Shown here: positions 1,854 through 7,824 of the stretch, in pieces
How the letters are laid out: the number at the start of each line of letters is the position of its first letter
How positions within the stretch are numbered: position 1 is the stretch's first letter
Sequence record: LC739532.1
Source: Escherichia phage phiWec177
Strand: one strand, 5' to 3'
Length of the DNA: 64,000 bases
Position numbers and translations under genes: made by a program
Notes under the pieces: model-generated
What the model saw: the letters and a program-made list of their open reading frames with translations, nothing else
The model's database searches: none
Told to the model about the DNA's origin: nothing

Positions 1854-2111
1854 ATGAAAGATTTAATAGAAAAACATAAGCGACCTATATACTTGCTCCA
1901 CAAGCCTCGGAAAACGATGTACTATGTGAGTAGCACAGACATGATGATAAAACAAAATGATGACTCATGGGTTGCTGGTATCTCTTACATCTCTACAGCA
2001 GATTGTAAAATCTACGCAAGACCTTATGAGATGTTTAACAAAGAAAATTGGGAAGTTTTAGACAGAAAACAAGCCTTAGAAATGATAAAGAAAGGAGAAA
2101 TCACATTATGA
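1854..2111 (+). CDS. Hypothetical small protein between nrdA and nrdB
   Basis: ATG at 1854 preceded by GGAGAG; in-frame part of track ORF 1770..2111; ends ATGA-overlapping the nrdB start. Confidence 0.45.
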   Translation: MKDLIEKHKRPIYLLHKPRKTMYYVSSTDMMIKQNDDSWVAGISYISTADCKIYARPYEMFNKENWEVLDRKQALEMIKKGEITL

Positions 2112-3181
2112 TTAACCAGCACCCAATCTTTTTAGGTGGTGAGAGAAAAACTTTTGACTCACTTAATAAACACTACCCAAAAATCTTTGAACTATATAAG
2201 CAACAAAAAGCACAAGATTGGTCAGAAGATGAGTTCCCTTTTGAACAATCACGTCTTGATTTTGAGAGTGTTCCAGCATCTATGTCAGGTGTAATGCTTG
2301 AGATTCTCAAGTGGCAATGGGAAGCAGATACTCAAGTTGCTAAGAGCTTGGCATTTGCCTTTGCACCCTTTATCTCTGATGACATCTATGCAACTGCAAT
2401 TATGAAGCAGTCTGAGATTGAAAACCTACATGCCCTTACTTACTCAGAGATTGTAAGGCAATGTATTAAAAACCCTGAAACAATCTTAGATGAGATTAAC
2501 CAGAATGTTGCTGTGCAAGACCGATTAAAAACTGTGAATCGTGTTCTTGAAGAATTACTGGATGAAGGGATAAATTACCGACTGAGTTATGTCCGTGATT
2601 CACTTCTGGACAAAGACCCTTTACACTTCCATAAAGTGATTCTAAAAGGTCTATTTGCAGTGACTGCACTTGAAGGTATATCTTTTATGGCATCCTTTGC
2701 ATGTACTTTTGCACTTGATGCTCAAGATAAATTTCAGGGTATTGCTCAAGCTGTCCAGAAAATTATGCTTGACGAAATCCTTCACACTAAAATTGATATT
2801 GAAGTTTTAAAAGAAACTTTAAGAGATGATGAGTGGCAGAAAGCTTTTCAACAAATTCTTCCAGAGATTAAAGTAATCTTAGATGAAGTGGTTGAAAGTG
2901 AAGAGAAATGGTCGTATTATATCTTCTCCGAAGGACGTGCTGTAGTTGGGTTAAATACAAAGCTTCTTCATGAGTGGGTTTACTATAATGCTGCCCCACT
3001 GTATGACATGTTTGGCATTCCCAGAGATTTTGTAGCTCCTAAAGAACCACCTTTGAAGTATATGATTAAGAAGATGGAAATTGATAAAGAGCAGAATGCT
3101 AATCAGGAGCAACAGAACGGTGCGTATTTATTGAATACTGTTGTAGATGATTTGAATAGTGGATTTTTAGAGGTTCCTTAA
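2108..3181 (+). CDS. nrdB: Ribonucleoside-diphosphate reductase beta subunit
   Basis: ATG 2108 after AAGGAGAAA; ExxH-type di-iron ligand motifs (SEIENLHALTYSEI, DEILHTK); size and position after nrdA. Confidence 0.8.
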   Translation: MINQHPIFLGGERKTFDSLNKHYPKIFELYKQQKAQDWSEDEFPFEQSRLDFESVPASMSGVMLEILKWQWEADTQVAKSLAFAFAPFISDDIYATAIMKQSEIENLHALTYSEIVRQCIKNPETILDEINQNVAVQDRLKTVNRVLEELLDEGINYRLSYVRDSLLDKDPLHFHKVILKGLFAVTALEGISFMASFACTFALDAQDKFQGIAQAVQKIMLDEILHTKIDIEVLKETLRDDEWQKAFQQILPEIKVILDEVVESEEKWSYYIFSEGRAVVGLNTKLLHEWVYYNAAPLYDMFGIPRDFVAPKEPPLKYMIKKMEIDKEQNANQEQQNGAYLLNTVVDDLNSGFLEVP

Positions 3182-3423
3182 TGACTTATGTAATTTACTC
3201 CAAAACTGGATGCCCTCAGTGTGAGACTGCAAAGAATTTTGCGAAAGCTCGTGGTATTGACCATGTTGTGAGAATGTTAGGGCAGGATTATGAACTGCCA
3301 GACCTGATGGATATTGCACAGATGCCAGTTCGTCAGATGCCATTCATCATGAAAACTGACGGTCAAAACCTAAAACCTGTTGGAACGCTACAGAATTTTA
3401 TGACAGAGGTGAATAATGCTTAA
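3181..3423 (+). CDS. nrdH: Glutaredoxin-like protein (NrdH-like redoxin)
   Basis: 80 aa with CPQC redox motif near N-terminus; located inside nrd cluster. Confidence 0.7.
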   Translation: MTYVIYSKTGCPQCETAKNFAKARGIDHVVRMLGQDYELPDLMDIAQMPVRQMPFIMKTDGQNLKPVGTLQNFMTEVNNA

Positions 3424-3670: not shown

Positions 3671-4867
3671 ATGAACAAAGTACAGATTATTAAAAAGAAT
3701 GGCTCACTTGAAGAACCTGATATCAAAAAAGTTTTAGCAGCAGTAACTAAGTCAGCTAACAGGGTTGGATATAAAGAACTCCCACCAGATGTTACCCAAG
3801 CTCTTGAGTCAGCATTTATGAGGATTCTGGTAAAGTCCACTAAGCAGAATAATTTGCTGATTTCTGTAAATGATATTCACAGTATTGTTGAGGGTGCTTT
3901 GGCAGAAGTCAATCACGAGATTTATGAGTCTTACTCAACATATAGAAATTACCGTAAAGAAGTTGCTCAAAATTGGGATGAACTCTACCAGAAGACCAAA
4001 GATACACTCTTCTTAGGCGACAGAGAGAATGCTAACTTTGACAGCAGTTTAATTTCTACAAAAGGTTCAATTATTCGTGGTTATCTGACTAAAGAAATCT
4101 TTAAGCAGTACCACTTAACACCAGAGGAACTTGAAGCCATTGAAAAAGGGTTTATCTACATCCATGACTTAAGAGACCTAATTTTTGGTGGTATCAACTG
4201 TTGTCTGTTTGACATCGGTAAAGTACTGAAAGGTGGCTTTGAAATGTCTGGCATTGAATACTGTGAACCAAAGTCTGTGCTGTCGGCCTTACAGGTTATT
4301 GGTGACATAGTTCTTTCAGCAACTGCACAGCAATTTGGTGGTTTTACTTTAGCAGAGATTGATAAGGTACTTGTACCGTATGCTAAGAAGTCTCTACGCT
4401 ATCATGCTGAGAAAGCAGCATCTTATGGTATTCCTAAAGAGCATTACCACAATTATGTCATGGAGCAGCTACAGATTGAACTGACTCAAGGTTTCCAGTC
4501 ACTTGAAATGAAACTAAACACTGTACCTTGTAGTCGTGGGGATTTTGCATTTACAACTTTGACATTCGGGTTACTTGATTCAGATATGTCCAATGAAGAT
4601 AACCGACTGCAATATATGATTGCAAGTACTCTCCTAGATGTTCGTATGAATGGACAAGGTAAGAGCAAGAAACCTGTTGTATTCCCTAAACTGGTTTATA
4701 TTTATGACCAGAAGAGACATAATGAGAATATCTGTCAATGCCACCTGTACAGTAAAGCTATTGAGTGTTGCTCTAAAGCAATGTATCCAGATTTCTTAAG
4801 TGTGTCTGGTCATGGGGCTGTAGCAGAGGCTTTTGAGCGTTCTGGCAAGGTTATTTCGCCGATGGGT
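3671..4867 (+). CDS. nrdD: Anaerobic ribonucleoside-triphosphate reductase, exon 1 (nominal ORF runs to stop at 4870 inside intron)
   Basis: N-terminal ATP-cone-like segment (VQIIKKNGSLEEPDIKKVL); ORF stops 3 nt into a group I intron; C-terminal half of the protein resumes at 5589. Confidence 0.7.
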
Positions 4868-5588
4868 TAACAGGCTCTATAGCTCATCTAAAACGTGCCT
4901 AAACAGGGAAACTCTACATATGTAGACAATCCTGTGCTAAATGATGTACGATGTAAGAAACTATACAACATAGGAGTCTTACATGCCAAACTATCACGTC
5001 ACTGAAGATGGAAAAGTCTTTAGGGAAAATGGTGTAGAGCTTACGCAGTGGAAATCCAACACTGGGTATATGAAAGTGAGGTTTTACGGTAAGAAGAATC
5101 GTGACATGTATGTCCACAGGTTAGTTGCTGAGAAGTATGTACCTAACCCAAATAATCTTCCAATTGTAAAACATAAGGACGATAACAAACTAAATAACCA
5201 CGCATCTAACTTAGAATGGGGTACTCATTCTGAGAATGCTAAAGAAGGTTATGAGAACGGATGCTACAAGTTCCAAAAGCGTTCATATGCCGTGAAAGCC
5301 ACACACAAAGTGACAAAGGAAGTTATTGTTGCTAAGTCAATACGAGAGTTATCCAATATACTTGGACACAATCGCAAGACCATCTCTTCAATATTGAAGG
5401 GTGTGAAAGAGCATAATAACTTTGAGTATGAGTTTGAATACATCTAAATGCCGAACGACTAACCGTGATGAATGTAGCGGTGTAGGGTCAAGCGACTCGA
5501 AATGGTACGCTACTTAGAAATAAGTAGAAGATATAGTCTGGACTTACTGGCGACAGTAAGCAGCTTGAATAAAGCGGGGTAAGCTTAG
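4868..5588 (+). mobile_element. Group I self-splicing intron (IA-like) interrupting nrdD; boundaries approximate to a few nt
   Basis: 5' region resembles phage group I intron P3-P6 as I recall the T4 td intron (CTAAACAGGGAAACTCTACATATGTAGACAATCCTGTGCTAAAT); R-like element CGAACGACTAA (5451-5465); S element AAGATATAGTCTGGAC (5528-5543); P9 hairpin CTTACTG-GCGA-CAGTAAG; U.G pair possible at 4867/4874; G at 5588 before exon 2. Confidence 0.75.
4983..5447 (+). CDS. Intron-encoded HNH homing endonuclease
   Basis: ATG 4983 after AGGAGTC; HNH-type motif (HRLVAEKY...HKDDNKLNNHASNLEWGTHSEN); lies between intron P6 and P7 regions. Confidence 0.75.
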   Translation: MPNYHVTEDGKVFRENGVELTQWKSNTGYMKVRFYGKKNRDMYVHRLVAEKYVPNPNNLPIVKHKDDNKLNNHASNLEWGTHSENAKEGYENGCYKFQKRSYAVKATHKVTKEVIVAKSIRELSNILGHNRKTISSILKGVKEHNNFEYEFEYI

Positions 5589-6557
5589 CGAACTTACCTG
5601 AACAACAAGTGTAGAGCATTTTTATCACCATACTATAACGAATATGGTGAAGAGTTTTATGTAGGTCGTGCAAACATTGGTGCTGTATCTTTGAACTTAC
5701 CGATGATTTACCAGTATTCTAAAGAGAATGGTTTAGATTTCTGGAAAGAGCTTGATAAGTACCTAGAAATAATTCGCAGCTTCCACAAGAAACGCTACGA
5801 AATGATTGCTAATATGCCAGCAAGTTCTAACCCTCTTGCATTTACACAAGGTGGTCTGTATAAAGGAACTAAGAATCCTACTGACAGGGTTGGTTGGGAT
5901 ATTGTGAAGTCCTTCACAGCTTCTTTTGGGGTTACTGCGCTTGATGAGCTATCTGTTCTTGCTGAAGGTAAACGGCTTCATGAAGTTGGAAGCTGTAGTT
6001 TTACATACGATGTTCTGGCATACATTAACATGAAAACTGAAGAGTTTAAAAATGAAGACGGCTTCTTATATGCCGTCTATGGTACTCCAGCAGAATCACT
6101 TTGCGGAACTCAGCTAAAACAGTTCAGAGATATGTTTGGCGTTATCAAAGGTGTTTCTGATAAGGAATACTTTACAAACAGTTTCCATATGAATGTTGCA
6201 GCAGACATATCACCATTTGAGAAGCAGGACTTAGAAGAGCCATTCTTCCATATCTGTAGAGGTGGGAGAATCCAGTATGTCAGGGTAGCTAACCCAGAAA
6301 ACTTAACAGCACTTAAAAGTTGTATTACCAGAGGGATGTTGAAAGGTTTTTATCAGGGGCTTAACTTTGACTTAGCAATCTGTGAACATTGTGGTAACAG
6401 ACCAAAGGCTGATGTTGAAGAATGTGAGGTTTGCCATTCACATGATATCTCTGTGATTAACAGGGTGTGTGGGTATCTTGGATGGACTAAGATTAAAGGT
6501 GAATCCCGAATGAACGATGCAAAAATCGCTGAGATTCGTGATAGAGTCTCTATGTAA
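5589..6557 (+). CDS. nrdD: Anaerobic ribonucleoside-triphosphate reductase, exon 2
   Basis: Frame open from 5589 (track ORF 5691 uses an internal TTG); zinc-ribbon CxxC...CxxC and glycyl-radical motif RVCGYLG near C-terminus. Confidence 0.75.
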   Translation, partial: RTYLNNKCRAFLSPYYNEYGEEFYVGRANIGAVSLNLPMIYQYSKENGLDFWKELDKYLEIIRSFHKKRYEMIANMPASSNPLAFTQGGLYKGTKNPTDRVGWDIVKSFTASFGVTALDELSVLAEGKRLHEVGSCSFTYDVLAYINMKTEEFKNEDGFLYAVYGTPAESLCGTQLKQFRDMFGVIKGVSDKEYFTNSFHMNVAADISPFEKQDLEEPFFHICRGGRIQYVRVANPENLTALKSCITRGMLKGFYQGLNFDLAICEHCGNRPKADVEECEVCHSHDISVINRVCGYLGWTKIKGESRMNDAKIAEIRDRVSM

Positions 6558-7338: not shown

Positions 7339-7824
7339 ATGAATTACATGGAGATTCGACCATTTGACACAGCTAATGGTGAAGGGGTTCGGGTAAGCCT
7401 CTTCGTAGCTGGCTGTAAACATCACTGTGAAGGCTGCTTTAACAGGGAGTCTTGGAAGTTTAATGCTGGTAAAGAGTTTACTTATGCAAACCTCTACGGC
7501 ATCATTAAGTTAATGGATGATAAGGCCATTAGTGGGTTGTCAATACTTGGTGGAGAGCCTCTGGATGACAGAAACATTCAAGAGGTCACCAACATATGCA
7601 AACGTATTAAAACTGTTTACCCAGAAAAATCTATATGGCTTTGGACAGGTTTTCAGTTACACGAAAAAATCCACCTAGATGTGATGAAATATGTTGACGT
7701 GGTGATTGATGGTAAGTATGATTCATCTAAACCAACAGTTAAACCGTATCGTGGTTCTGATAACCAAAACCTCTGGAGAAAAGAGTATGGGTGGCAAGGC
7801 GATTGTCAATGGCGAGCAGAATGA
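7339..7824 (+). CDS. nrdG: Anaerobic ribonucleotide reductase activating protein (radical SAM)
   Basis: CKHHCEGC (CxxxCxxC) radical-SAM cluster motif near N-terminus; about 160 aa; in nrd cluster. Confidence 0.8.
   Translation: MNYMEIRPFDTANGEGVRVSLFVAGCKHHCEGCFNRESWKFNAGKEFTYANLYGIIKLMDDKAISGLSILGGEPLDDRNIQEVTNICKRIKTVYPEKSIWLWTGFQLHEKIHLDVMKYVDVVIDGKYDSSKPTVKPYRGSDNQNLWRKEYGWQGDCQWRAE

Follow-up and report, generated by a model that had tools for sequence, protein, structure and literature searches.

Several intron-encoded systems described in phages bear comparison with the element examined here. Mobile introns usually favour conserved, functionally critical sequence, and the nrdD (sunY) intron of phage T4 encodes the GIY-YIG endonuclease I-TevII (PMC2988022). 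An intron in another ribonucleotide reductase gene of a T-even-type phage, nrdB of RB3, encodes the HNH enzyme I-TevIII (PMC1865063). [quoted passage not shown] Within the genus Felixounavirus, indels of homing endonucleases have been described as the main differences (PMC3728262), nrdD has been noted to be split by a homing endonuclease gene in UAB_Phi87, HB-2014, and JH2 (PMC4837284), and “two introns” were counted, without detail, among the ncRNAs of SPJ41 (PMC9951933); the Felix O1 genome paper reported no introns (PMC3185647). Our literature search found no account of the intron structure or junctions, and no demonstration of splicing for any member of the Felix-type nrdD intron family.

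The stretch of DNA analysed here, which we call the window and which spans 64 kb, comes from a Felixounavirus, i.e., a Felix O1-like phage. Positions 4600–5900 are 100% identical to Escherichia phage phiWec172, where all three genes of this region bear the label “hypothetical protein”; with many Felixounavirus genomes from Salmonella and Escherichia phages, identity is ~97.5%. The nucleotide-metabolism block around nrdD is the usual one (nrdB, glutaredoxin, nrdD, and nrdG; Table 1), and a scan of the window places 23 tRNA genes beyond it. The nrdD frame that begins at 3671 stops in the ORF list at the TAA of 4868–4870, as an earlier note on this DNA had described. Our reading is that positions 4868–5609 form a mobile group I intron of IA2-like architecture, inserted in nrdD between the codons for Gly399 and Cys400 and carrying the gene of an I-HmuI-like HNH endonuclease; we give this reading a probability of about 0.92, with splicing and the activity and specificity of the endonuclease as its predicted parts. 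The observations on which it is based are the boundaries of the element, its conserved and covarying RNA, the homology and intactness of the endonuclease, and the polymorphism of alleles among relatives.

Table 1 Features of the nrdD locus and its intron, in window coordinates.
Feature	Position	Strand	Details	Basis
nrdB	2048–3181		Nucleotide-metabolism block around nrdD	
Glutaredoxin gene	3181–3423		Same block as nrdD	
nrdD exon 1	3671–4867	+	399 codons: ATP-cone and N-terminal half of NrdD; ends ..SPMG	
Group I intron	4868–5609	+	742 nt, IA2-like	Bounds from intron-less alleles, Rfam matches, covariation
P1	4861–4888	+	Exon GAUGGGU (4861–4867) with internal guide GCUCAUC (4882–4888)	Fold
P10	4874–4881 with 5610–5617		GCUCUAUA with UGUAGAGC, 8 bp	Duplex search
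P3, 5′ strand	4894–4899	+	3 pairs with compensatory changes	
P4	4903–4908 with 4930–4935	+	2 pairs with compensatory changes	
P5	4913–4917 with 4922–4926	+		Thermodynamic folds
P6/P6a, 5′ strand	4936–4948	+	GC..GAUGUA; pairs with 5439–5451; loop between holds endonuclease gene	
Hairpin	4951–4984	+	AUGUAAGA / UCUUACAU; 8 bp, 4951–4958 with 4977–4984	Fold, z-score −1.6
HNH homing endonuclease gene (predicted)	4983–5447	+	154 aa, in P6a loop; last three codons overlap P6a 3′ strand	
P6a/P6, 3′ strand	5439–5451	+	UACAUC..GC	
Catalytic core	5452–5542	+		Rfam alignment, folds
R-like element	5452–5462		CGAACGACTAA; present	
P7	5457–5461 with 5534–5538	+	Invariant	
P7.1	5462–5466 with 5477–5481	+	One compensatory pair	
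P7.2	5485–5489 with 5494–5498	+		Folds
P3, 3′ strand	5504–5509	+		
P8	5510–5516 with 5521–5527	+		Folds
S element (J8/7)	5528–5543		AAGATATAGTCTGGAC; present	
P9	5543–5549 with 5554–5560	+	GCGA loop; 3 pairs with compensatory changes	
P9.1	5563–5566 with 5572–5575	+		Fold
P9.2	5577–5583 with 5593–5599	+	4/7 pairs compensatory	Fold
Intron 3′ tail	Ends at 5609	+	GAACAACAAG; terminal G5609	
nrdD exon 2	5610–6557	+	315 codons and stop; first codon TGT = Cys400 of PMGCRAF	
nrdG	7339–7824		Same block as nrdD	

The exon 1 product matches the Pfam ATP-cone and positions 1–250 of the NRDD profile, and is colinear with the uninterrupted NrdD of Felix O1. The 5′ splice site follows the final base of exon 1, U4867, a placement made in the earlier note that intron-less alleles bear out; the first three bases of the intron, UAA, stop the exon 1 frame, and its last base is G5609. 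The insertion point falls within the conserved motif PMGCR, between the codons of its Gly and Cys (MG/CR, where the slash marks the insertion point here and below). By homology with C290 of T4 NrdD, we take the Cys of this motif to be the thiyl-radical residue: Logan et al. are said to have identified, in 1999, the cysteine at about position 290 of T4 NrdD as the thiyl-radical cysteine, and the PMGCR Cys of T4 lies ~110 residues into exon 2, around position 290. With this identification, the Felix-type intron splits nrdD exactly at the codon of the catalytic Cys.

The earlier note described such an intron as known for T-even nrdD, which does not hold for this element. The T4 nrdD intron is like that of the window in its host gene, its general ribozyme type, and an ORF looped out of the core; its 5′ exon ends in U as well, identity in short stretches of the core is 87.5%, and its P1 guide, GCUCAUG, is similar. 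The T4-type intron, as seen in phage IME537, nevertheless follows ..DAFQAYE, which corresponds to residue 279 of the window NrdD and lies ~120 codons upstream of MG/CR, and its GIY-YIG endonuclease contrasts with an HNH_3 protein in the window. On insertion site and endonuclease family, we rejected the possibility that the window intron is an orthologue of the T4 nrdD intron. The T4 td intron is ~70% identical to the window over 143 nt in its 3′ half (P7–P9.2) and likewise carries P7.1/P7.2 and P9.1/P9.2 extensions, but it interrupts another gene and encodes an endonuclease of another family.

A default Rfam scan of the whole window returned no intron match. A permissive scan matched Intron_gpI (RF00028) at 5380–5560 with 33.1 bits (E 1.9e-6 local, 1.2e-4 for the whole 64-kb window), and also matched the P4–P6 part at 4903–4986. 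In this covariance-model search, of the kind proposed in the earlier note, the match is above chance, yet below the curated gathering score of 50 bits. The score is low because the 465-nt ORF in P6a splits the model. Alleles that lack the ORF exceed the threshold (55.1 bits in FGS030 and 60.4 bits in RPN213), with ribozyme parts that are near-identical to that of the window (~2 bases different), and ORF-less homologues at the same site, among them three uncultivated viral contigs from IMG/VR, reach 70–75 bits. The element is a group I intron, and its splicing is predicted from the sequence. The hallmarks listed in the earlier note, i.e., the R-like and S elements, the P9 hairpin with its GNRA loop (GCGA, 5543–5560), and the U.G pair at the 5′ splice site, are all present, as is the core itself, and the ORF at 4983–5447 that lies in the P6 region is HNH_3, in line with the HNH endonuclease of the note.

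Covariation was assessed on ORF-trimmed sequences of the window, RPN213, phi92, JEP1, F88, and the three IMG/VR contigs, for helices P1, P3, P4, P7, P7.1, P9, and P9.2. Across these eight homologues, which come from few lineages and from one of which the structure was drawn, all 41 pairs in the seven helices were 100% paired (328/328 cells were standard pairs) and 14 of the 41 showed compensatory changes; none of 500 shuffles matched the observed pairing values, and controls with slid partners paired at 31–44%. P1 was paired at every position in all eight, with one compensatory pair, and its splice-site pair, U4867.G4882, was U.G in each; in P9.2, four of the seven pairs had changed on both sides. 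The 5′ strand of P10 lies directly 5′ of the P1 guide strand, and P10 abuts P1 and begins at the first base of exon 2. Vibrio phage F88 has a fully compensated equivalent, in which GAUUGGCA pairs with UGCCGAUC over 8 bp, again abutting P1 and beginning at the first exon base.

Because the MAFFT alignment of the eight homologues misaligned P5, P6, P7.2, P8, P9.1, and the 3′ end of F88, the helices P5, P6, P7.2, P8, and P9.1 are taken from single-sequence folds. Minimum-energy folds of seven homologues, in which only the P7 strands and exon 2 were blocked, mostly agree on P1, P3, P4, P5, P6/P6a, P7.1, P7.2, P8, P9, P9.1, and P9.2, with those of L015, L027, and F88 departing in places from the common layout. 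P7.1 and P7.2 between P7 and the P3 3′ strand, together with P9.1/P9.2 extensions, appear in most of the seven folds, and these are the features of subgroup IA2 as Michel and Westhof are said to have defined it in 1990; the architecture is IA2-like, as in T-even phage introns. In alleles that lack the ORF, the P6/P6a strands are joined directly. A minus-strand “terminator” at 5598–5578 is P9.2 read backwards.

The ORF looped out at P6a matches Pfam HNH_3 (1.3e-10, 41.2 bits against a cut-off of 24.8) and PHROG 59 (1.9e-42). Residues 3–152 align by phmmer with residues 12–169 of I-HmuI (1U3E), i.e., over the full length, at an E of 3.2e-9. An AlphaFold model of the protein (mean pLDDT 89.8) was compared with the PDB using Foldseek, and I-HmuI was the sole significant match (E 1.6e-11, 163 columns); the full-length layout of I-HmuI is present, with an N-terminal beta region, an HNH domain, and a C-terminal helical DNA-binding part. 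Both proteins are encoded within introns, and they are of 174 aa in I-HmuI and 154 aa here; identity is 27%, and intron, gene, and host differ. Among 30 homologues, H64, N76, and N85 do not vary. Immediately before the catalytic His, the protein has Lys (..IVKHKD..) where I-HmuI has Asp (..VVDHKD..), presumably a metal ligand there; catalytic equivalence with I-HmuI is thus not fully established, and we do not claim identical metal coordination. On sequence and model evidence, the ORF is an I-HmuI-like HNH endonuclease of predicted activity and specificity. I-TevIII is likewise an HNH enzyme in a T-even-type intron of a ribonucleotide reductase gene, but the gene is that of the class I small subunit, and the enzyme is larger, dimeric, and makes a double-strand break; no specific similarity of the window endonuclease to I-TevIII was detected. 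We also considered an intein and rejected it, since the intron begins with an in-frame stop codon and the ORF has a different context.

The endonuclease ORF is intact in all nine full alleles (the window and eight IMG/VR loci), and the differences among them are almost all synonymous, with pN/pS of 0.03–0.10 in divergent pairs (about 0.07) and pS up to 0.45. Purifying selection on the endonuclease of these full alleles is strong, and the predominance of synonymous differences argues for a working protein. The hairpin upstream of the ORF encloses the Shine-Dalgarno sequence AGGAG (4972–4976) and reaches two bases into the start codon (4983–4985). Translational control by a hairpin over the start region is described for T4 intron endonucleases (PMC2988022), and the hairpin here may act as a translational brake on the endonuclease, although with a z-score of only −1.6 this is suggestive at most. 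A promoter scan found nine sites against 9.4 expected and gave no sign of a dedicated endonuclease promoter; it also identified no T4-type late promoter.

In the phage collection, where record counts are approximate given that it holds duplicates, the Felix-type intron is found in 93 records, ~60 with the ORF and ~33 without, such that ORF-less forms make up about a third of the intron-carrying relatives; nrdD is uninterrupted in ~167 related records, Felix O1 included. Phage Mushroom is a further carrier of the intron, wV8 is intron-less, and EC6 represents the ORF-deleted type. The intron measures 316 nt in Salmonella phage FGS030 and 292 nt in RPN213, and in both the ribozyme parts match the window almost base for base. 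In the 316-nt form, ATGCCAAA survives along with the final ten codons of the ORF, still in frame (MPN joined to NFEYEFEYI and the stop); this form therefore reflects an internal deletion of 426 nt from the endonuclease gene and is not an ancestral empty intron. In RPN213, the deletion is a different one, of 450 nt. Invaded, endonuclease-deleted, and empty sites coexist in the genus, which is what a homing cycle predicts. In a comparison aimed at a co-conversion tract, differences between the exons of intron-plus and intron-less alleles were most numerous within the opening 60 nt of exon 2 (12–13 versus ~2–4), but a pair of intron-less alleles likewise showed 8 differences there, so the peak is no clear sign of such a tract.

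Introns at MG/CR are present in other phages as well. Colinear endonucleases are encoded in those of JSE (Krischvirus, Straboviridae; 54% identical to that of the window), JEP1 (Vequintavirus; 51%), and Vibrio phage F88 and its relatives (unclassified in the record; 42%). The intron of Escherichia phage phi92 (Justusliebigvirus) is ORF-less, and the authors of that genome annotated a “spliced variant”, gp192A; those of the three IMG/VR contigs also lack an ORF. Compared with the window, the introns of JSE, JEP1, phi92, and F88 have the same insertion point, a homologous ribozyme with compensatory changes, and, where present, a homologous HNH endonuclease; they differ in belonging to other phage subfamilies and in their P10 and P9.x sequences, and in phi92 the ORF has been lost. 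JEP1 has a further interruption upstream, which gives a weak group I signal. A phi92-like contig, L028, retains a remnant (..YDYEFCYEM) of a JEP1-type ORF, and loss of the endonuclease by deletion has therefore occurred repeatedly. Homologous ribozymes and endonucleases at MG/CR in several groups suggest that both travel together across phage subfamilies. We lean, though not strongly, towards the view that a single intron/endonuclease unit, specialised on the MG/CR DNA of the thiyl-radical Cys loop of class III RNR, has spread through five or more phage groups that are only distantly related (Felixounavirus, Vequintavirus, Justusliebigvirus phi92, Krischvirus JSE, and Vibrio phages), with all three stages of the homing cycle found in Felixounavirus.

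The 3′ boundary was placed differently in the earlier note, in which nrdD resumed at 5589 and SPMG was joined to RTYLNN. An intron of 4868–5588 would give NrdD a seven-residue insertion, RTYLNNK, directly before CRAF and its catalytic Cys. G5588 does precede an open frame, and the 21-nt difference between the two ends preserves the frame in the window, phi92, JEP1, L015, and L027; the frame is open mechanically from 5589, after the TAG of 5586–5588, and as 21 is a multiple of three, the misplaced junction also kept it. The note was thus correct that splicing 4867/5589 keeps the frame, but its junction was wrong, and exon 2 starts at 5610. In Felix O1, DaR-2019b, and Citrobacter phage Michonne, nrdD is uninterrupted (..VISPMG-CRAFLSPY..; DNA ..CCGATGGGT/TGYAGAGC..), and the residues RTYLNNK and their 21 bases are absent from all three. 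The product read from 5589 matches positions 264–560 of Pfam NRDD and the glycyl-radical domain, but the NRDD match begins only at residue 8, and homology resumes at 5610. Joined across an intron of 4868–5609, the CDS is 2145 nt, the same as in Felix O1 and DaR-2019b, and its product, a 714-aa NrdD of the length seen in Felix O1, aligns with solved NrdD structures without a gap through PMGCR; alignment of the joined exons with NrdD proteins, which the earlier note had suggested, is thus continuous with the end at 5609, whereas the end at 5588 leaves seven extra residues. The disputed bases also hold the 3′ strand of the covarying P9.2 (CUUACCU, 5593–5599, pairing with GGGUAAG, 5577–5583), and P10 would have 3 bp at most with exon 2 starting at 5589, against 8 bp at 5610. 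Tails equivalent to the 21 bases measure 22 nt in L031, 23 nt in JSE, and 25 nt in F88, where a 5588-type junction would break the frame and G/UGY works in all three. U4867 and G5609 agree with both group I splice-site rules, every homologue retains the terminal G, and the full alleles recovered from the phage collection with the corrected intron as query all span 742 nt. A shift of both splice sites by one base is excluded, as the terminal G would be lost. The true end of the intron is G5609, 5588 having been misplaced by 21 nt, and the predicted exon junction is GGT/TGT (..CCGAUGGGU/UGUAGAGC..); we find the shorter intron scarcely credible.

One may postulate an alternative scenario without splicing, in which insertion of a homing endonuclease cassette has left nrdD in two parts, each translated on its own, whose products reassemble. 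The nrdA/mobE arrangement of Aeh1 is a documented functional split RNR gene of this kind, without an intron (PMC3653736), and GenBank and RefSeq list two NrdD CDSs and an HNH gene in dozens of relatives. Position 5610, however, has neither a start codon nor a ribosome-binding site, and the earliest downstream start, TTG 5691, would yield a product that lacks the catalytic Cys400 together with 27 conserved residues; moreover, the ORF is embedded in a group I core that is complete and covaries, and this core is kept in alleles from which the ORF has been deleted. A split gene of the Aeh1 type is therefore very improbable here. The element could also be a decaying relic, with an inactive ribozyme or endonuclease and with nrdD a dispensable pseudogene, given that the common ORF-deleted forms (~33 records) reflect loss of the endonuclease in part of the genus and that anaerobic RNR may be dispensable under laboratory conditions. 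Both exons are nevertheless intact and conserved, every core pair is maintained, and purifying selection acts on the endonuclease in the allele class to which the window belongs; we consider decay the least improbable of these alternatives, and still a very unlikely one.

Under our preferred reading, that of a mobile group I intron ending at G5609, the pre-mRNA would fold into P1–P10, and free guanosine would attack after U4867, held in P1 by its U.G wobble with G4882. The guide would then align exon 2 through P10 (4874–4881 with 5610–5617), and the 3′-OH of exon 1 would attack after the terminal G5609, to yield an mRNA for a 714-aa NrdD that is colinear with, and equal in length to, that of intron-less relatives. 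The P6a loop would supply the 154-aa I-HmuI-like HNH endonuclease, which in a mixed infection may nick or cut an intron-less nrdD near GGT/TGY; in Felix O1 nrdD, the presumed homing target is ..CCCGATGGGTTGCAGAGCTTTC... Repair from an intron-bearing genome would then copy the intron in (homing).

The element is of an ordinary kind and changes no concept; what is new here is a well-delimited intron, with its structure and junction, of a type already known. Instead of a single spliced 714-aa NrdD, dozens of Felixounavirus genomes in GenBank and RefSeq show a pair of “NrdD” proteins plus a free-standing HNH gene, and the exact junction, GGT/TGT, with an intron of 742 nt, makes a correct join() annotation possible. 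A junction picked by frame continuity alone can err by whole codons, and the proper guides are intron-less alleles and P10. The locus adds a well-defined mobile intron that targets the codon of a catalytic residue in an essential-type enzyme and is common to several phage subfamilies. If a single intron/endonuclease unit has indeed moved among these phage groups, Felixounavirus would be a natural system for measuring the gain, decay, and loss of mobile introns in lytic phages.

The endonuclease gene has been deleted from the same nrdD intron (alleles of window 4868-5609) in two different ways, one represented by a Salmonella phage FGS030 allele and the other by an RPN213 allele (see table), and we found ORF-less forms of the intron in approximately 33 database records. 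Comparing the window copy of the gene (4983-5447) with those at phage loci L013, L017, L018, L021 and L024 reveals two clades. Roughly 40% of synonymous sites differ between these clades, compared with only about 3% of non-synonymous sites, and the ribozyme sequences flanking them differ at just 7-10 of 277 bases.

At the start of the endonuclease gene, an 8-bp hairpin (window 4951-4984) encloses the Shine-Dalgarno sequence and covers the first two bases of the start codon. The arrangement recalls how translation of the T4 intron endonucleases is controlled, but the hairpin is statistically not strong (z -1.6). Further into the ORF, at window 5033-5040, there is a second copy of TGTAGAGC, the octamer that begins exon 2 and serves as the P10 partner; this recurrence is probably a coincidence.

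In different genes of other phages we found the P7.1-type core motif of the nrdD intron (GTGATGAATGTAGC.G.GTAGGGT) or, alternatively, ribozyme 3′ halves at 73-75% identity. In a Pseudaeromonas phage the element lies between CDSs annotated as "structural protein" and "tape measure protein", while an Aeromonas phage example is found among genes with no annotation beyond hypothetical. These occurrences suggest a wider family of related introns occupying other sites.

Phage loci with ORF-deleted alleles of the nrdD intron or with related ribozyme sequences
Feature	Locus	Detail
ORF-deleted allele	L001:1501-1816	426-nt in-frame internal deletion; remaining ORF MPN|NFEYEFEYI*
ORF-deleted allele	L002:1501-1792	450-nt internal deletion; ORF start also lost
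Core motif or ribozyme 3′ half	L009:2501-2628	
Core motif or ribozyme 3′ half	L011:2501-2589	
Core motif or ribozyme 3′ half	L014	
Core motif or ribozyme 3′ half	L016	
Core motif or ribozyme 3′ half	L019	
Core motif or ribozyme 3′ half	L025	
Core motif or ribozyme 3′ half	L030	

GenBank records MG065662-MG065690 are labeled as phages of Campylobacter jejuni ("Campylobacter phage A1xx"). Their sequences match nrdD of Felixounavirus at approximately 95-98%, yet an intron core and an endonuclease of the Vequintavirus type are present as well, so that mislabelling or mixed assembly is probable. In phiWec172, which is identical to the window, the three genes under the corresponding stretch (LC739530.1 19230-20530) are annotated just as "hypothetical protein". 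Elsewhere in the window, a cluster of 23 tRNA genes (37630-43226), typical of Felix O1-like phages, includes two tRNAs with long variable arms (39970-40057 and 43056-43145).

The nrdD gene of Escherichia phage JEP1 (L008:841-1721) has a further, upstream interruption following ..TLTSVNG. It contains an ORF of its own (1062-1595) and gives a weak signal against Intron_gpI (27.7 bits, E 1.5e-4); if this interruption is an intron, JEP1 would have two introns in one nrdD gene.
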